This document shows positions 25,169 through 61,884 of a stretch of 64,000 nucleotides of DNA, in pieces. This stretch comes from Eledone cirrhosa (Eukaryota), in assembly GCA_964016885.1 (NCBI GenBank), contig OZ024745.1, positions 30,814,001 to 30,878,000 of the forward strand, in the 5' to 3' direction. Within the stretch, counting starts at the first letter, position 1, and each line of letters opens with the position of its first letter. The notes under the pieces were generated by a model, which was not told the origin of the DNA, ran no database searches, and saw only the letters and a list, made by a program, of their open reading frames with translations. Both the position numbers and the translations under genes were made by a program.

Positions 25169-26050
25169 TTAACAGCGCTGCGATCGAATGTGGCTTTTTA
25201 GCCCAGCCAATGGTCTGAAATGTCTTGCACAGAATTGGCAAGCAAAACATTCACTGGGAATAGCCGGCTGTGGTTGGGGTTCGTGTACTTTTACAGGTCG
25301 TTTGAGCCCTCCTGCTGATTTACATTCTCTACCACATGCTTGGCAAGCATGATGAGTAGCATCTCCAACAGCAGCCTGGTAGTTAACCACTGGTCTCACT
25401 TTATGACTACGAAGATGACTTTCGAGTCCAGCTTTGCTGAGGCAGAGTCTCGCACAGCCGCTGCATGTTAGCGCCATAGGAGGACCTTCGCTGTCTGGAA
25501 ATGCAACAGTAATGCCCTTCCTCACATCCCTCTTTACTTCCTCGTATGCGATTCGAGAGGCATCAAAGGCAACTTTCCCCTCATATACAGTCTTTCTCCA
25601 TTTATTACAATCAGCAGCAACATTTTCCCATGTATCAGCAGAGATGTTAGCGTCTTTCAAAGAGGCTTTCAACGAATCCTTATACCTCTTTTTTGGTTTA
25701 TGTAGAGGTCGTTTTCCTTTAGCTAACTCTCCATAAAAGAGTTGTTTTGGTATTCTAGAATCTTTCATCCTGGCAAGGTGACGACTCCAACGGAGTGTTT
25801 GCTTAAGCACAAGAGCTTCTATACTGTCGCACAGAGAGCTTTCCAAAATCTCGACATCACTGATATGGTCTCTCCAGTGAACGCCATGGATCCGTCTGAG
25901 ACACATCTGGTGGAAACGCTCCAATTGTTTAAGGTGGTGTCGATATGTGACCCAGGTCTCGCAAGCATAAAGAAGAGAAGAGAGCACACATGCCTTGTAC
26001 ACCTTTACCTTTGTCTTCTTGCAGTCTCGCCGACTCCAGAGTCGCCTTTC
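25169..26050 (-). mobile_element. RTE/BovB-like LINE 3' end: RT thumb plus three C2H2 zinc fingers (5' truncated)
   Basis: KVKVYKACVLSSLLYACETW..ERFHQMCLRRI..LRWSRHLARMKDSRIPKQLFYGEL..KRYKDSLK, then CxxC..GLxSHxRSH three times (the middle one degenerate). The N-terminal ~20 aa of the ORF are microsatellite. Confidence 0.9.
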
Positions 26051-26136
26051 ATATATACATACATACATACATACATAACATAACATATATATATATATAT
26101 ATTCTCTTATATTCATACATACCTACATAACTACAT

Positions 26137-34242: not shown

Positions 34243-34566
34243 TGTGTGTGTGTGTGTGTGTGTGCGTGCGTTTGTTTGTTTGTGTGTGTATAAATACCGC
34301 GACACAATACTGTTCATTGTTACGGGCGTGCTAGGCAGACTTCTTACAGCAGTCCCAGTAACAAATACAAGGACACCACCAGTAATCACATCAATATAAG
34401 TCAATGGAATTAAACAAACTACACAGACGAAACGTGTATGAGTGAAACAGACAGTCGGTGATATCGTAGACAAACTACGACCACCCAGTGTAGGTATCTG
34501 TAGAATTATATAGGAAACAAAACGATTTTTATTGGAATCGAAGTTATATATATATATATATATATA

Positions 34567-37500
34567 TAAATGTAAGTATGCATGTATACGTACATACATA
34601 TATGTATACAGACGTACAGTAGCATGCACATATATATATATATATATACATATATACATACATATGCATACAGGTACACATACATATATGCACGTATCAG
34701 TTTAGCGGCGCTTATTATAACGTCGCTTTGTTCGTTTGTAAACAAACTGAAAAGCCTGAATTTATGCCATACGGTGTTAAGGCAACCACGTCACCTTTTT
34801 GTTCAACACTGACACAGGAACGATGTACTAGTTTCAAGCTTGTTAGCTATCATCAGCACCGTTTACCCATCTGCCAGATAGTTGAACGTTCGAAAGTATA
34901 TACTTTCCTTATGAAAATTAACGGCTGAGCAGCCTAATTTGCATATTGAGTGAGTTAAATCGGTCAGGCATACCGAAAACGATAAATTGAAACAAAATGA
35001 AAACGAAATTTCATTTCTCACTCTTAGTATGGCACTTACTTAAATGTAAGTATGCATGTATACGTACATACATATATGTATACAGACGTACAGTAGCATG
35101 CACATATATATATATATATATACATATATACATACATATGCATACAGGTACACATACATATATGCACGTATCAGTTTAGCGGCGCTTATTATAACGTCGC
35201 TTTGTTCGTTTGTAAACAAACTGAAAAGCCTGAATTTATGCCATACGGTGTTAAGGCAACCACGTCACCTTTTTGTTCAACACTGACACAGGAACGATGT
35301 ACTAGTTTCAAGCTTGTTAGCTATCATCAGCACCGTTTACCCATCTGCCAGATAGTTGAACGTTCGAAAGTATATACTTTCCTTATGAAAATTAACGGCT
35401 GAGCAGCCTAATTTGCATATTGAGTGAGTTAAATCGGTCAGGCATACCGAAAACGATAAATTGAAACAAAATGAAAACGAAATTTCATTTCTCACTCTTA
35501 GTATGGCACTTACTTAAATGTAAGTATGCATGTATACGTACATACATATATGTATACAGACGTACAGTAGCATGCACATATATATATATATATATACATA
35601 TATACATACATATGCATACAGGTACACATACATATATGCACGTATCAGTTTAGCGGCGCTTATTATAACGTCGCTTTGTTCGTTTGTAAACAAACTGAAA
35701 AGCCTGAATTTATGCCATACGGTGTTAAGGCAACCACGTCACCTTTTTGTTCAACACTGACACAGGAACGATGTACTAGTTTCAAGCTTGTTAGCTATCA
35801 TCAGCACCGTTTACCCATCTGCCAGATAGTTGAACGTTCGAAAGTATATACTTTCCTTATGAAAATTAACGGCTGAGCAGCCTAATTTGCATATTGAGTG
35901 AGTTAAATCGGTCAGGCATACCGAAAACGATAAATTGAAACAAAATGAAAACGAAATTTCATTTCTCACTCTTAGTATGGCACTTACTTAAATGTAAGTA
36001 TGCATGTATACGTACATACATATATGTATACAGACGTACAGTAGCATGCACATATATATATATATATATACATATATACATACATATGCATACAGGTACA
36101 CATACATATATGCACGTATCAGTTTAGCGGCGCTTATTATAACGTCGCTTTGTTCGTTTGTAAACAAACTGAAAAGCCTGAATTTATGCCATACGGTGTT
36201 AAGGCAACCACGTCACCTTTTTGTTCAACACTGACACAGGAACGATGTACTAGTTTCAAGCTTGTTAGCTATCATCAGCACCGTTTACCCATCTGCCAGA
36301 TAGTTGAACGTTCGAAAGTATATACTTTCCTTATGAAAATTAACGGCTGAGCAGCCTAATTTGCATATTGAGTGAGTTAAATCGGTCAGGCATACCGAAA
36401 ACGATAAATTGAAACAAAATGAAAACGAAATTTCATTTCTCACTCTTAGTATGGCACTTACTTAAATGTAAGTATGCATGTATACGTACATACATATATG
36501 TATACAGACGTACAGTAGCATGCACATATATATATATATATATACATATATACATACATATGCATACAGGTACACATACATATATGCACGTATCAGTTTA
36601 GCGGCGCTTATTATAACGTCGCTTTGTTCGTTTGTAAACAAACTGAAAAGCCTGAATTTATGCCATACGGTGTTAAGGCAACCACGTCACCTTTTTGTTC
36701 AACACTGACACAGGAACGATGTACTAGTTTCAAGCTTGTTAGCTATCATCAGCACCGTTTACCCATCTGCCAGATAGTTGAACGTTCGAAAGTATATACT
36801 TTCCTTATGAAAATTAACGGCTGAGCAGCCTAATTTGCATATTGAGTGAGTTAAATCGGTCAGGCATACCGAAAACGATAAATTGAAACAAAATGAAAAC
36901 GAAATTTCATTTCTCACTCTTAGTATGGCACTTACTTAAATGTAAGTATGCATGTATACGTACATACATATATGTATACAGACGTACAGTAGCATGCACA
37001 TATATATATATATATATACATATATACATACATATGCATACAGGTACACATACATATATGCACGTATCAGTTTAGCGGCGCTTATTATAACGTCGCTTTG
37101 TTCGTTTGTAAACAAACTGAAAAGCCTGAATTTATGCCATACGGTGTTAAGGCAACCACGTCACCTTTTTGTTCAACACTGACACAGGAACGATGTACTA
37201 GTTTCAAGCTTGTTAGCTATCATCAGCACCGTTTACCCATCTGCCAGATAGTTGAACGTTCGAAAGTATATACTTTCCTTATGAAAATTAACGGCTGAGC
37301 AGCCTAATTTGCATATTGAGTGAGTTAAATCGGTCAGGCATACCGAAAACGATAAATTGAAACAAAATGAAAACGAAATTTCATTTCTCACTCTTAGTAT
37401 GGCACTTACTTAAATGTAAGTATGCATGTATACGTACATACATATATGTATACAGACGTACAGTAGCATGCACATATATATATATATATATACATATATA

Positions 37501-37836
37501 CATACATATGCATACAGGTACACATACATATATGCACGTATCAGTTTAGCGGCGCTTATTATAACGTCGCTTTGTTCGTTTGTAAACAAACTGAAAAGCC
37601 TGAATTTATGCCATACGGTGTTAAGGCAACCACGTCACCTTTTTGTTCAACACTGACACAGGAACGATGTACTAGTTTCAAGCTTGTTAGCTATCATCAG
37701 CACCGTTTACCCATCTGCCAGATAGTTGAACGTTCGAAAGTATATACTTTCCTTATGAAAATTAACGGCTGAGCAGCCTAATTTGCATATTGAGTGAGTT
37801 AAATCGGTCAGGCATACCGAAAACGATAAATTGAAA
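34567..37836 (-). mobile_element. Left arm: ~6.9 tandem copies of a 474-bp hammerhead-containing unit (ribozyme on minus strand)
   Basis: Exact 474-bp period (ORF track repeats at 34582, 35056, 35530...). HHRs at 34819-34863, 35293-35337, 35767-35811, 36241-36285, 36715-36759, 37189-37233 and 37663-37707. Confidence 0.95.
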
Positions 37837-37888
37837 TTTGTTTCAATTTATCGTTTTCGGTATGCCTGACCGATTTAACTCACTCAAT

Positions 37889-37896
37889 ATGCAAAT
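37889..37896 (+). promoter_or_regulatory. Octamer motif ATGCAAAT, present in every 474-bp unit
   Basis: Perfect octamer starting 88 bp before CTGATGA. Context is conserved with 6847-6869. Confidence 0.45.
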
Positions 37897-37969
37897 TAGG
37901 CTGCTCAGCCGTTAATTTTCATAAGGAAAGTATATACTTTCGAACGTTCAACTATCTGGCAGATGGGTA

Positions 37970-38014
37970 AACGGTGCTGATGATAGCTAACAAGCTTGAA
38001 ACTAGTACATCGTT
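37970..38014 (+). ncRNA. Type I hammerhead ribozyme (representative of 12 copies)
   Basis: AACGGTG-CTGATGA-T-AGCT aaca AGCT-T-GAAA-CTAG-TA^CATCGTT. Helix I extends over 37946-38032 (ATGGG/CCTGT, CTGGC/GTCAG, GTTCAAC/GTTGAAC). Predicted cleavage after 38007. Confidence 0.88.
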
Positions 38015-40215
38015 CCTGTGTCAGTGTTGAACAAAAAGGTGACGTGGTTGCCTTAACACCGTATGGCATAAATTCAGGCTTTTCAGTTTGTTTACAAACG
38101 AACAAAGCGACGTTATAATAAGCGCCGCTAAACTGATACGTGCATATATGTATGTGTACCTGTATGCATATGTATGTATATATGTATATATATATATATA
38201 TATGTGCATGCTACTGTACGTCTGTATACATATATGTATGTACGTATACATGCATACTTACATTTAAGTAAGTGCCATACTAAGAGTGAGAAATGAAATT
38301 TCGTTTTCATTTTGTTTCAATTTATCGTTTTCGGTATGCCTGACCGATTTAACTCACTCAATATGCAAATTAGGCTGCTCAGCCGTTAATTTTCATAAGG
38401 AAAGTATATACTTTCGAACGTTCAACTATCTGGCAGATGGGTAAACGGTGCTGATGATAGCTAACAAGCTTGAAACTAGTACATCGTTCCTGTGTCAGTG
38501 TTGAACAAAAAGGTGACGTGGTTGCCTTAACACCGTATGGCATAAATTCAGGCTTTTCAGTTTGTTTACAAACGAACAAAGCGACGTTATAATAAGCGCC
38601 GCTAAACTGATACGTGCATATATGTATGTGTACCTGTATGCATATGTATGTATATATGTATATATATATATATATATGTGCATGCTACTGTACGTCTGTA
38701 TACATATATGTATGTACGTATACATGCATACTTACATTTAAGTAAGTGCCATACTAAGAGTGAGAAATGAAATTTCGTTTTCATTTTGTTTCAATTTATC
38801 GTTTTCGGTATGCCTGACCGATTTAACTCACTCAATATGCAAATTAGGCTGCTCAGCCGTTAATTTTCATAAGGAAAGTATATACTTTCGAACGTTCAAC
38901 TATCTGGCAGATGGGTAAACGGTGCTGATGATAGCTAACAAGCTTGAAACTAGTACATCGTTCCTGTGTCAGTGTTGAACAAAAAGGTGACGTGGTTGCC
39001 TTAACACCGTATGGCATAAATTCAGGCTTTTCAGTTTGTTTACAAACGAACAAAGCGACGTTATAATAAGCGCCGCTAAACTGATACGTGCATATATGTA
39101 TGTGTACCTGTATGCATATGTATGTATATATGTATATATATATATATATATGTGCATGCTACTGTACGTCTGTATACATATATGTATGTACGTATACATG
39201 CATACTTACATTTAAGTAAGTGCCATACTAAGAGTGAGAAATGAAATTTCGTTTTCATTTTGTTTCAATTTATCGTTTTCGGTATGCCTGACCGATTTAA
39301 CTCACTCAATATGCAAATTAGGCTGCTCAGCCGTTAATTTTCATAAGGAAAGTATATACTTTCGAACGTTCAACTATCTGGCAGATGGGTAAACGGTGCT
39401 GATGATAGCTAACAAGCTTGAAACTAGTACATCGTTCCTGTGTCAGTGTTGAACAAAAAGGTGACGTGGTTGCCTTAACACCGTATGGCATAAATTCAGG
39501 CTTTTCAGTTTGTTTACAAACGAACAAAGCGACGTTATAATAAGCGCCGCTAAACTGATACGTGCATATATGTATGTGTACCTGTATGCATATGTATGTA
39601 TATATGTATATATATATATATATATGTGCATGCTACTGTACGTCTGTATACATATATGTATGTACGTATACATGCATACTTACATTTAAGTAAGTGCCAT
39701 ACTAAGAGTGAGAAATGAAATTTCGTTTTCATTTTGTTTCAATTTATCGTTTTCGGTATGCCTGACCGATTTAACTCACTCAATATGCAAATTAGGCTGC
39801 TCAGCCGTTAATTTTCATAAGGAAAGTATATACTTTCGAACGTTCAACTATCTGGCAGATGGGTAAACGGTGCTGATGATAGCTAACAAGCTTGAAACTA
39901 GTACATCGTTCCTGTGTCAGTGTTGAACAAAAAGGTGACGTGGTTGCCTTAACACCGTATGGCATAAATTCAGGCTTTTCAGTTTGTTTACAAACGAACA
40001 AAGCGACGTTATAATAAGCGCCGCTAAACTGATACGTGCATATATGTATGTGTACCTGTATGCATATGTATGTATATATGTATATATATATATATATATG
40101 TGCATGCTACTGTACGTCTGTATACATATATGTATGTACGTATACATGCATACTTACATTTAAGTAAGTGCCATACTAAGAGTGAGAAATGAAATTTCGT
40201 TTTCATTTTGTTTCA

Positions 40216-40261
<46 letters not shown>

Positions 40262-41096: not shown

Positions 41097-41174
<78 letters not shown>

Positions 41175-41185
41175 TAACAGATTAA

Positions 41186-41236
41186 AGTTTAAGCAAAGAA
41201 TCGCTGCTTTCACCCTTAACGGGATCTTCTGAAACT
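41186..41236 (-). ncRNA. CAGAAGA-variant hammerhead
   Basis: Reverse complement of 15425-15475. Confidence 0.65.
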
Positions 41237-41327
41237 AACAAAGTCAATCTGTAAACGCAGAACTGGATATTTCAAAAAACGTTGCAACCAGAGGAAGACA
41301 GGAAGACGATATATTATTATAAGCTTG

Positions 41328-43296: not shown

Positions 43297-43644
43297 TGTC
43301 CACAATGCGTCTGCCGGACACTGCCTGGTGGCGTTAGCCAGCAAGACAAGATCACAAACGAGGATGTGCTTGGAAGATCCATTGCCAACCGTCAACAAGG
43401 GCAAAAAGACAGAAGAATTCAGCTACCAGGGAATGTCCTACTGCAAAATCAACAACAAAATTTATAAAAATAACAACAACAACAACAACAGCAATGACAA
43501 CAACAAATACAATGGTAACAACAACAGCAGCAATAGCAACAACATCAGCAATAGCAATGATGTCAAAATCACAATAACAAGTGAACCTGTTTCCAGTAAA
43601 GAAACACATGATAAACAGAACTATACAAATATTAACTTCTCCTA

Positions 43645-44460
43645 TCCCCCCTCCTCACTTCACTGCCCTATTACAATCTAATAAGAACACCTCTACCTGG
43701 AGATTAACATGCTAGAAATAGCAACCAAATCTCCCCTCCTCACTTCACTGCCCTATTACAATCCAATAAGAACACCTCTACCTGGAGATTAACATGCTAG
43801 AAATAGCAATCAAATCTCCTCTCATCACTTCACTGCCCTATTACAATCCAATAAGGACACATCTACCTGGAGATTAACATGCTAGAAATAGCAACCAAAT
43901 CTCCTCTCATCACTTCACTGCCCTATTACAATCCAATAAGGACACTTCTACCTGGAGATTAACATGCTAGAAATAGCAACCAAATCTCCCCTCATCACTT
44001 CACTGCCCTATTACAATCCAATAAGAACACCTCTACCTGGAGATTAACATGCTAGAAATAGCAATCAAATCTCCTCTCATCACTTCACTGCCCTATTACA
44101 ATCCAATAAGAACACCTCTACCTGGAGATTAACATGCTAGAAATAGCAACCAAATCTCCCCTCATCACTTCACTGCCCTATTACAATCCAATAAGAACAC
44201 CTCTACCTGGAGATTAACATGCTAGAAATAGCAACCAAATCTCCCTCCTCACTTCACTGCCCTATTACAATCCAATAAGAACACCTCTACCTGGAGATTA
44301 ACATGCTAGAAATAGCAACCAAATCTCCCCTCCTCACTTCACTGTGCTATTACAACCCAACAAGGACACTTCTACCTGGAGATTGACATGCTGGAAATAA
44401 CAACCAAATCACTTCACCGTTCTATTACAATCCAACAAGGATTGCCTGGAGAATTGACAT
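43645..44460. repeat. 85-bp minisatellite, ~9.5 copies
   Basis: CACTTCACTGCCCTATTACAATCC recurs at 43741, 43826, 43911, 43996, 44081 and 44166, degenerating at the right end. Confidence 0.95.
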
Positions 44461-58849: not shown

Positions 58850-59900
58850 AGGCCTTCTCAAAAGTGTTCCTTACTTGACCCTCTGCAACAAGGCACTTCT
58901 CGTCATATACCTAGTTCTTCTCTTCAATGAGCTTGTTGATTACAGCGTCATTGTCAACAATCCAATCTTGGTAGTGTGTCTTCTTAAGACCGAATAGACC
59001 AACCCAAGCATTGTAAACAAGTATTTTGATCTGATTCCGAGTTCCACCAAAGACAATGTTCTCGAGTTCACTATGAAGAGCAACTCAAATGTGCTTTATC
59101 ACTTGTACCCTGCTACCCTGTTTCTTCTGATCTGCACCTTCATCTTGCCACGGACAAGTTTGTGGTCTGTACCACATTTATCACCACGCATTACTTTTAC
59201 GGAACAAATATTCTGGATGTTTCTTTTTCTAGTGATGATATCATCCAAGATGTGTCTGCACGTAGATCCTTGGTGTATCCATGTTGCCTTGTAGGTATCT
59301 TTTTGTTGAAAGAAAGTATTGCGCATGACCAACTCAAACTCAGTGCATAGTTACAATAGAAGATCATTGCATTCATCCTGCCCTTGCCATGAGGTCTTAA
59401 AACATGCCATGTGTTGTGGTCACTTCCCACACGTGCATTGAAATCTCCAAGCAACAATATATTCTCTGCGTGTATAATCGTTGTTATACAGCCTTCAAAA
59501 TATTGGTAAAAAGCTATAATTGATTCCTTACTACTATTTAAGGTAGGGACATACACTGAAATGACAGTTATGTAATATCCTCTTGAAAGAGGAACACTCA
59601 GATGCATAATTTGATCCCCAATACTTTCTGGTTGTTCCAGCCACATAGTAACCTCTGTCCGGAGAGCAAAACCTTTTCCTCCACCCCTTTTCACCCCATT
59701 TGGTTTACCTTTCCAGAAGAACGTATAACCAGCACCTCTTTCTGAAAGATGACGAAGAAGAGTTTCAAGGAGAGCAGTTATATCAATATTACACCTGCTC
59801 AATTCTCTGGATAAAAAAACGAGTTCTGACTTCTAGATTTGAGGATGATTCCCTGTCAATATGTGTTCTAGTATTCCATGTAGCAACATACAATGATTCT
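58850..59900 (-). pseudogene. RTE LINE APE endonuclease region, frameshifted
   Basis: ATWNTR..IDITALLET..GAGYTFFWKG..ISVYVPT..LLLGDFNARVG..NTFFQQ..ATWIH..DHKLV. Confidence 0.9.
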
Positions 59901-59982: not shown

Positions 59983-60585
59983 CAAATATGACTGGAAAGA
60001 ACTTGTGTATATGTATATTTGTGTCTCCGTGTATATATTATACAATCATTCATAATCTATTTACCAGTGTTTACGTAATAAGATTTACATTTATACGAGT
60101 ATATTTCTCTACATGTATTCTAATAACTTCGTATATATTTGAATAACTCTTATCTTTATATATTTCATGTTTCGTGTTTCTAGGGACAATCTTTGGAGTT
60201 TAGCAGCTGTCAAAACCAACATTTCAACTGTGTTATCATTGTTTTCTCTTGAGCCAAGCAAGTATAAAACTGGATGTAAATAGGACTTACACTAACCACC
60301 AATCACTCCTACAGCGACATCACTCTATTCCACATATATATTGAATTTGATAATAATATACTCATTGTTATGGTGGTCGCCTCACGTCATACATTGTTTT
60401 TGACGTCGTAACTCCTGCCGTGCTACAAATACTTCTCAAACATCGAATATATTTCTTCATCACTAAATCTTTTAAAAACATTTTTATCGAATAAATCGCC
60501 AACATTTTTGCCAAAGGATCTTGGACATGAGATTTTGGACTATCAATTATTTTAGTTTTAATAGTTTATATATAATTGATTCACT

Positions 60586-61732
60586 ATGAATCCTGAACAA
60601 AGACATATCCCAAATTTGCGTTGTTTTGATAACTCAAATACGGAGATAGCTTCCGGCAGTAAAGATACCAACCATTCTGTTGCATTACTATACTCTGGTA
60701 AACTATCATGTTTGTCAAGGAAAATATTCCGAAGGACGAAACTTCGTCAAGCCTTAAGCAAAAGAATTAACACTTCTAATCAAATATCCCGCAACTCATT
60801 TCATTTGTGTCTGCTGGTCTTTTTATATCTATTACAACACACTTCAGCGACAGAGTGTTCTTTCATGGATGGCAAATGTACTTATAACATACGTCTCGCT
60901 CCACCTCAACCGGCGGCAGAAGGATCTACTGGAGGCGGAGATCAATGTAAACCTTACGCCCCGGCAAATATGAGACAATTCAGTGGCACACAAGAAAGCC
61001 AGAATGATTACGCACAAAAAATGACAACTATAGTAAAAGATTTTGATGTCATTAAAGATGATCATGAAAATCGTATCAAAGAACTGGAAAACTATATTAG
61101 AAAAAGTTTATCTAGAGGCGAAGAATCCGACGTGATGAAAGTGGCCGGTAATATAAAAGAGAAGATCAGGCAAGGTTCCAGTTCTGAATCAGGTGGCGTA
61201 AACGAATACGGAGTAACCGGTATTAAATTTGACAATACTGAAGACAATTTGATTACAAAACTCCACAGGCAGTTTTCAGCGATACGAGAACTCAATCGAC
61301 AAAAATCACAGTCGTTACGCGTGATACATTACAGGTTGAACGAAACTCGCCAAAAGTTAACCGATACACAAAACAACCTGCTGTCGACCACAAATCAACT
61401 TTTACAAGCAGAAGAAACTCTAAATAATTTGCAAGATGACAAGTATATTTTACAAAACCAACTGAAAGACAGGAACGAGAGACTAGAGCGAGCTGAGAAA
61501 CGTGCAGATGCGTTAGAAAAGAAAAATAAAGAAACAGATGAGAAATTATTGACACTTATTCGATCTGAGAACCTTCTAAAAGAAGAAATGTACACGGCTC
61601 AATTTAAGCTGAACGAAACTGAAAAGTTGTTAGAAAACGCTCGAAATCAGTATCGCCAATTGGATGTAGATTTTGTTCGTCTTATTGGAGAAATCGGCAC
61701 AAGAGAGAAACAACTGAAACAGTGCTATAAAG
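60586..61732 (+). CDS. Large coding exon of a secreted or type II membrane coiled-coil protein (angiopoietin-like N-terminal architecture); downstream exons not seen
   Basis: Non-repetitive 382-codon frame. Hydrophobic FHLCLLVFLYLL, then ECSFMDGKCTYNIRL, then long heptad-rich K/E/Q/L region. Donor AAG|GTAAGA after 61732 (phase 1). Possible acceptor TTTCTAG|G at 60183. Confidence 0.8.
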
Positions 61733-61884
61733 GTAAGACATTCATAAATTTCACAACTAATTGTTTTCTTGCAGGCAGAAACTACGGTAACGCTGTAAAA
61801 TTGGTATAAAAACAGTGTGTGTATGTATGTATGTATGTATGTATGTATGTATGTATGTATGTATGTATGTATATATGTATGTAT

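Follow-up and report, generated by a model that had tools for sequence, protein, structure and literature searches.

A young and abundant retrozyme family in Eledone cirrhosa with a predicted dimer-favoured type I hammerhead ribozyme

The array and its ribozyme

The window, by which we mean the whole stretch of 64,000 nucleotides of Eledone cirrhosa DNA analysed here, holds an array of 474-bp units in two divergent arms, each running out into a (TA)n tract (Table 1). The unit has 35% GC, and no frame of at least 150 aa lies inside the array. As a circle it is predicted to be 66% paired (-152.6 kcal/mol; z -11.7, 60 shuffles), partly owing to its AU tract. Matches to Rfam miRNA and snoRNA models were discarded, as they arise from this AT-rich tract, and the (TA)n flanks hide any target duplication. 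The element thus shows the marks of a retrozyme: tandem units each with a type I hammerhead, GC below 50%, the lack of coding capacity, dispersed high copy number and a self-paired circle. Judged by its sequence, it is a new non-LTR retrozyme family, young and very abundant, whose RNA stage we infer. The unit is slightly longer than the 150-450 bp of PMC7229834 and falls inside the 51-972 bp of bioRxiv 10.64898/2026.07.22.740005. In the literature searched, octopus and cephalopod work included, there is no account of this family, and neither inverted arms nor tails are reported as evidence for retrozymes.

The first plus-strand ribozyme copy reads, in order, helix I 5' strand, CUGAUGA, U-AGCU-AACA-AGCU-U, GAAA, CUAG, UA and helix I 3' strand, with a predicted cut after GUA (38007/38008). 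The CUGANGA core, GAAA, the A15.1-U16.1 pair and an NUH triplet (here GUA) are all present. A preliminary description of the window had called a hammerhead at this site, and the call is well supported: the 12 copies in the window (seven minus, five plus) are unchanged, a 31-nt core pattern has 10,760 exact matches in the 3.0-Gb genome against none for the reversed pattern, and the fold scores z = -3.0 (500 shuffles). Rfam yields no match in the window at gathering level; the Hammerhead_HH9 model falls into the right register with a score of 18.5 bits, short of the 52 it requires. On these alignments and folds, the copy is a canonical type I hammerhead of the dimer-favoured amphibian kind, and cleavage is predicted. 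Its palindromic helix III, the U·U mispair, the long helix I and the hypothesis of a stable monomer circle have all been published before (Perreault 2011; Cervera and de la Peña 2014, 2020).

Natural variation was read from run X1, which comprises 3,524 contigs of unknown kind, possibly from the source sample; runs X4, X5 and X6 gave 0, 1 and 6 placed contigs, respectively. Differences inside the ribozyme in run X1 include N7 (37981), the middle base of loop II and A37970, and none is listed at 10.1, 11.1, the palindrome or A17. Within the CUGAUGA box, N7 is the only position that varies at 5% or more.

The window has several other features. Two further repeated motif pairs are hammerhead-like, with CUGANGA and GAAA boxes (11225, +, and 49278, -; 42916 and 43259, +). 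An open frame of 409 aa at 60580-61809 (+) has a hydrophobic stretch and coiled-coil character, with no Pfam match. By their motifs, we take 25169-26122 (-) to be LINE-like, the end of a reverse transcriptase with zinc fingers (no Pfam match), and 59197-59832 (-) to be a LINE-like AP endonuclease. Nine tandem copies of an 85-bp unit, with 95% matches, occupy 43644-44410.

Table 1. The array in the window, its ribozyme and the three young families
Feature	Position in window	Strand	Remarks
Left (TA)n tract	~34546-34566		
Left arm	34567..37836	-	6.9 identical inverted units; short end (unit position 430) at (TA)n
Identical ribozyme copies, minus strand	starts 34801, 35275, 35749, 36223, 36697, 37171, 37645	-	
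Inversion junction	37836..37841	.	arms match perfectly as inverted repeats across 2,381 bp
Right arm	37837..40221	+	5.0 identical 474-bp units; tailed end (unit position 488) at (TA)n
Octamer ATGCAAAT	37889..37896	+	88 nt upstream of C3; shared by A, B and an older family but not by C
Type I hammerhead, first plus-strand copy	37946..38032	+	sequence reading, Rfam model alignment, folding
Helix I 5' strand	37946..37976	+	6 bp proximal, loop 1, ~17 bp distal
Loop 1, 5' side	37968..37970	+	UAA (UAU in many copies), opposite U38014
Catalytic box C3-A9	37977..37983	+	CUGAUGA
Helix II	37984..37997	+	U10.1·U11.1, A-U, G-C, C-G; loop UAACAA (or U-A plus AACA)
GAA, palindrome, A17	37998..38007	+	G12-A14 37998-38000; ACUAGU 38001-38006; A17 38007
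Helix I 3' strand	38008..38032	+	5' end of predicted cleaved monomer
AT-rich, microsatellite-like stretch	38140..38266	+	folds as long hairpin
Identical ribozyme copies, plus strand	starts 38420, 38894, 39368, 39842	+	
(TA)20 flank	40219..40258	.	right target tract
Family A			474-bp unit; ACUAGU; U·U; GUA
Family B			466-469 bp; ACUAGU; G10.1-C11.1; GUU or GUC
Family C			unit of about 310 bp; palindrome ACGCGU; positions 10.1-11.1 U·U or A-U; revealed by altered loop III pattern

Sister families and helices I and II

When helix II is left free in the search pattern, the genome matches rise to 23,594 and a second family, B, is revealed beside the family of the window (A). An older subfamily of A mostly has C·A at 10.1-11.1; matches without U11.1 number 708 and those with it 12,687, as counted with slightly different patterns. 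Older, degenerate hammerhead families with longer loop III palindromes also occur (L081-L090).

A separate ribozyme lies in two Helitron-bearing loci (L085:2990-3117, -; L084 near 3895, -). It is a complete type I hammerhead, in which helix II has a G-C pair at its base and helix III is long; it is the unconstrained best fold of its sequence (HH9 E 5e-6), and a Helitron Rep/PIF1 frame (matching Helitron_like_N and PIF1 in Pfam) stops about 35 nt before it. Its core has nine near-identical matches among the 95 rows listed, and no report combining Helitron and hammerhead was found in the literature searched by title or opening of abstract.

Ahead of C3, at a distance of no more than 140 nt, the octamer ATGCAAAT was found in 125 of the 144 A copies examined, in 33 of 36 B copies and in none of 76 C copies (overlapping loci being counted repeatedly), and in an older family it lies at -91/-92 (loci sampled: L032, L083, L086, L087). 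It is a possible candidate for an internal snRNA-type promoter like that of newt satellite 2 (cited in PMC2220036); retrozymes seem to lack promoters according to a 2020 review.

Covariation was assessed in 22 distinct rows picked by hand (six A, nine B, six C and one other), leaving out degenerate or truncated copies such as L036, L037, L042 and L082. Over this alignment, 93.4% of the cells are paired, and 13 of 18 pairs show double changes, with helix I contributing eight of its 10 pairs and helix II four of its five. None of 500 shuffles reaches this score, a control inflated by relatedness, and slid controls give 37-51%. RNAalifold finds helices I and II unaided. The search patterns imposed the core, GAAA and ACUAGU on A and B, and the loop II letters on C and D; that these do not vary among the aligned rows is therefore no independent evidence.

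For helix I, the preliminary description gave about 24 bp with UA and AG bulges and a small internal loop. Such a helix can be drawn (7+5+5+7 pairs, with a UA bulge, an AG bulge and a 3x1 loop), but only its proximal, outer and distal parts are probable: the distal 7 bp and five of the middle pairs have P 0.95-1.0, and the five pairs between the two bulges just 0.08-0.46. If the core is constrained to stay open, a 23-bp helix I in a different register folds best. The seventh pair, A37970-U38014, was rejected as a conserved pair, being A-U in nine of the 22 rows and unpaired in the other 13; since U38014 is invariant nonetheless, the functional feature would be an internal loop, UAN/U, that six pairs separate from the core. 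The UA bulge is present and is in fact the 5' side of this canonical loop 1, and the AG bulge is not kept across the families and has no claim to be a special element. Helix I keeps its length though not its sequence: it has 23 bp in the window copy, 26-27 bp in B and 24-25 bp in C. Over the 22 rows, U38014 and A37969 are invariant and U37968 is found in at least 90%, a conservation of loop residues that may reflect the proposed contact of loops 1 and 2.

A close structural counterpart of these helices is the Schistosoma mansoni (HH9) ribozyme, in which an internal loop 1 and a hexaloop 2 are described (PMC2632901), and which shares the 6-bp helix I, internal loop 1, 4-bp helix II and A-ending hexaloop. 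In an equally good alternative reading, helix II here consists of U·U, 3 bp and the hexaloop UAACAA, which is the HH9 geometry. HH9 differs in having G10.1-C11.1 and a 3-bp helix III, and the window copy scores far below the cut-off of the model.

The base of helix II is U·U in the window copy, as first noticed (U10.1 is 37984, U11.1 is 37997), and so lacks the purine-pyrimidine G-C pair. Natural U10.1-U11.1 mispairs and weak palindromic stems III are reported (Perreault 2011, PMC3088659), U·U being the best-tolerated mispair; having been described in nature (PMC3088659, PMC7229834), this mispair leaves the assignment to the type I hammerheads intact. Its suggested role as a special, dimer-linked feature did not survive comparison, because the same palindrome occurs with G-C in family B and with C·A in the older A copies, and G-C, A-U and C·A are all found at 10.1-11.1 in the sister families. 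U·U was therefore rejected as the cause of dimer dependence; U10.1G/U11.1C moves the predicted dimer balance by 0.7 kcal/mol only. It is a tolerated weak variant and not a switch.

Helix III and folding as a dimer

In the monomer, ACUAGU gives one A-U pair closing a CUAG loop; in the dimer, it gives six pairs. Both inner bases of loop III are changed in 15,055 motifs, of which 14,585 have the palindrome ACGCGU, a count that reflects one event copied many times, just as motif counts in general reflect few events (three young families). Five further palindromes occur at one locus each (ACAUGU, AUGCAU, ACAGCUGU, AUAGCUAU and AUACAUGUAU), and nine entries are non-palindromic, two of these being a different ribozyme with a long helix III. 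That the palindromes of the sister families differ supports pairing between copies, and comparison of the sequences supports selection of helix III for self-complementarity across families.

The predicted energies point the same way. For family A, the double hammerhead lies below two single ones by 4.3 kcal/mol (wide flanks) or 16.1 kcal/mol (trimmed) per dimer, and for families B and C it is favoured by 8-10 or 15-18 kcal/mol. The two calculations differ in size, as the wide-flank version has truncated flanks that pair with the unit, and only the order of the energies matters, since the folding model ignores tertiary contacts and Mg2+. The double hammerhead is thus predicted to be more stable than two single hammerheads, and the view that the palindrome is too short for the monomer and pairs between copies is supported by this prediction together with the varied palindromes.

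The predicted ground state is not one of the active folds: the free ensemble lies 3.1 (trimmed) to 12.6 kcal/mol (wide flanks) below the double hammerhead. In this ensemble, C3-U4-G5 pairs with UAG of the palindrome, in dimers too, where P(C3-G16.2) is 0.97-0.98 in both units. In the circle, this slipped pairing has P 0.98 for family A, 0.93 for B and 0.02 (at most 0.15) for C.

Newt satellite 2 and the ASBVd double hammerheads, among the closest known systems, likewise have a palindromic loop III completed by a second copy, an arrangement proposed to spare monomer circles (PMC4209133, PMC3088659), and the hypothesis of monomer-circle stability is stated in PMC4209133. The axolotl ribozymes HHR_Amex1 and HHR_Amex2 (PMC7229834) are also type I hammerheads in tandem repeats; the former shares the one-pair helix III with a palindromic tetraloop and the latter the U·U at the base of helix II. 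Here, unlike in the axolotl, both weak features occur in one ribozyme, the 474-bp unit has an AT-rich hairpin, and the host is an invertebrate; among invertebrates helix III is said to be stable as a rule (PMC7761336), although PMC7229834 may show similar invertebrate cases. Monomers of HHR_Amex1 and HHR_Amex2 cleave 6% and 22%, respectively, in an hour, and the dimers far better. Cleavage in the monomer circle, described at first as suppressed, is by this analogy probably reduced rather than abolished.

The monomer might be substantially active if loop 1-loop 2 contacts and Mg2+ held the core with a helix III of 1-2 bp; dimers would only raise the rate, and circles would be protected by proteins or by something else than the lack of a partner. 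The conserved tertiary-loop residues of the 22 rows speak for this, as do most invertebrate retrozyme ribozymes, which cleave well as monomers (PMC7761336), the activity of Amex2 with its U·U, and the argument of PMC7229834 that circles are blocked in vivo otherwise than by self-pairing. Helix III here, however, is of the Amex1 type, the single fold costs at least 8.5 kcal/mol, and several palindromes would hardly persist were the monomer enough. We judge substantial monomer activity clearly unlikely.

The slipped pairing in both units of the dimer would also suit a crippled ribozyme, in which U·U, GUA, the slipped misfold and a 24-bp helix I trapping a local hairpin leave little cleavage even in multimers without a chaperone, low activity favouring long templates. 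GUA is slower than GUC post-transcriptionally, mispairing of CUGAU traps hammerheads (PMC1636495), and eight of nine Xenopus retrozyme dimers showed no cleavage (bioRxiv 10.64898/2026.07.22.740005). Against such a defect stand the restriction of core variation to N7 among the contigs of run X1, the small energetic effect of repairing U·U and the good tolerance of this mispair, and we consider a crippled family A very unlikely.

Insertion anatomy and the Penelope link

Divergent arms are not peculiar to the window. Among 100 listed of the 10,760 matches, opposite-strand neighbours within 2 kb are divergent in 16 cases and convergent in one (counted by hand). The arms have fixed outer ends: these fall at unit position 430 or 488, and (TA)n comes next. 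By an automatic classifier, 22 of 34 divergent loci pair a short with a tailed arm (A, 12/20; B, 3/6; C, 7/8), and the remainder comprise two tail/tail loci, two short/short loci and eight with an unclassified arm; some arms are cut by the limits of the fetched stretch, and most A loci were chosen for showing both strands. Tails are about 58, 68 and 35 nt long in A, B and C, respectively. Opposite arms resemble each other more than arms of different loci do (differences per 130 nt: A, 1.1 vs 3.8; B, 4.1 vs 9.7; C, 0.15 vs 3.1), with family B arms differing more from each other than those of A or C.

Penelope-like elements (PLEs) are described as marked by inverted copies with 5' truncation, by a tail on one side only and by microsatellites as targets (PMC8557442), and the array has all three: an inverted truncated copy, a tail at one end and a (TA)n target. 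With tandem copies added, the likeness extends to the non-autonomous derivatives of PLEs (PMC8557442; bioRxiv 10.64898/2026.07.22.740005). Mobilisation of retrozymes by PLEs was proposed in PMC7229834 and is supported by pLTR homology in the 2026 preprint. The array differs from PLE derivatives in having no ORF, a canonical rather than minimal hammerhead and no homology to the pLTR of L121, the single PLE family compared, for which the best filtered match has E 0.034 and unfiltered matches fall in the AT tract only. The minimal hammerhead of PLE pLTRs, with a helix II of 7-8 bp, a helix I of 4-5 bp and no helix III insert (PMC4209133), was rejected for the ribozyme, which has a helix II of 4-5 positions and a helix I of 6 bp plus extension.

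A young PLE-like family is present in the same genome (150 scored matches at 95-100% identity, many with open frames, of up to 713 aa), and its copies end in the same two ways, short and tailed, in (TA)n. Its protein has no Pfam or PDB match; it carries what we take to be YRDD, a linker rich in Cys and, at its C-terminal end, GIY-YIG. Neighbours in the ESM Atlas carry GIY-YIG, RVT_1 and HTH_animal, and the Penelope-like assignment rests on these neighbours, the motifs and the element ends. Kinship between the retrozyme unit and this abundant family was rejected, as nothing is shared beyond AT-rich sequence. Retrozyme arrays often adjoin PLE-like coding fragments (L017, L029, L030, L035, L052, L059, L067), probably because both kinds of element insert at (TA)n.

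In its terminal repeat, the young PLE-like family has a hammerhead-like motif of its own (window 41170-41260, -; also about 1197, 12770 and 19954, -, and 15430, +; L121). Position 4 of this motif is A rather than U, its helix II has U·U at the base, and its helix III has 5 bp. The pattern has 19,131 matches, with A4 in all 100 listed, the best fold is more stable than the hammerhead fold by 0.8 kcal/mol, and no Rfam hammerhead model matches; activity of the motif is doubtful.

The fixed ends do not coincide with the site of cleavage, and so each arm runs across it several times; this calls for a circle, a multimer left uncleaved or recurrent template jumps. The identical units within arms favour an intact circle as template, and the insertion scars point to copying of such an RNA circle by Penelope-type transposons. 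Arrays might instead grow at the DNA level, by satellite-type amplification or through assembly collapse, with the ribozyme a passive relic. The identity of all 12 units, AT tract included, may be an assembly artefact, local expansion by unequal crossover is proposed in the 2026 preprint, and one contig (C1636; L021-L025) carries a long array of ~490-bp units with recurring variant units, which suggests higher-order amplification of DNA. The matches are dispersed, however, and the loci examined have fixed 3' ends, varying junctions and divergent arms ending in (TA)n; compensatory changes across families also argue against a relic, and growth of the arrays at the DNA level strikes us as extremely improbable.

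The reading we prefer, and regard as probable, is that of a dimer-favoured type I hammerhead in a 474-bp non-LTR retrozyme, with cleavage in multimers, a circle and Penelope-like copying. In transcripts spanning at least two units, strands of helix I would be exchanged and one ACUAGU would pair with another, forming the double hammerhead, which would cut after GUA and release 474-nt monomers. The long helix I would hold the monomer ends together for ligation, by a host ligase of the RtcB type if the analogy with other retrozymes in vitro holds. The circle, having one palindrome only, would cleave poorly, and a Penelope-like RT/GIY-YIG enzyme, priming at a (TA)n tract, would copy round it many times, leaving identical units in two divergent arms.

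A stronger version, possible but rather unlikely in our view, gives CUAG a double duty: in multimers it would build the double hammerhead, and in the circle its UAG would lock C3-U4-G5, with a slipped helix I, so that the locked circle could be copied up to a dozen times per event by a Neptune-type Penelope enzyme recognising structure and not shared sequence. Family C, equally successful, is without the lock, and the same fold competes in dimers. If true, this version would supply the missing explanation for the persistence of animal retrozyme circles, and direct evidence, from insertion scars, of rolling-circle retrotransposition by Penelope elements.

Several young retrozyme families in one genome vary naturally at the disputed positions: U·U, G-C, A-U and C·A at 10.1-11.1, CUAG and CGCG in loop III, and GUA, GUU and GUC as the triplet. 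Together with a young Penelope-like family that has 713-aa frames and the same insertion ends, these sister families form a test system, which opens direct tests of dimer dependence, of circle stability and of the partnership between Penelope elements and retrozymes.
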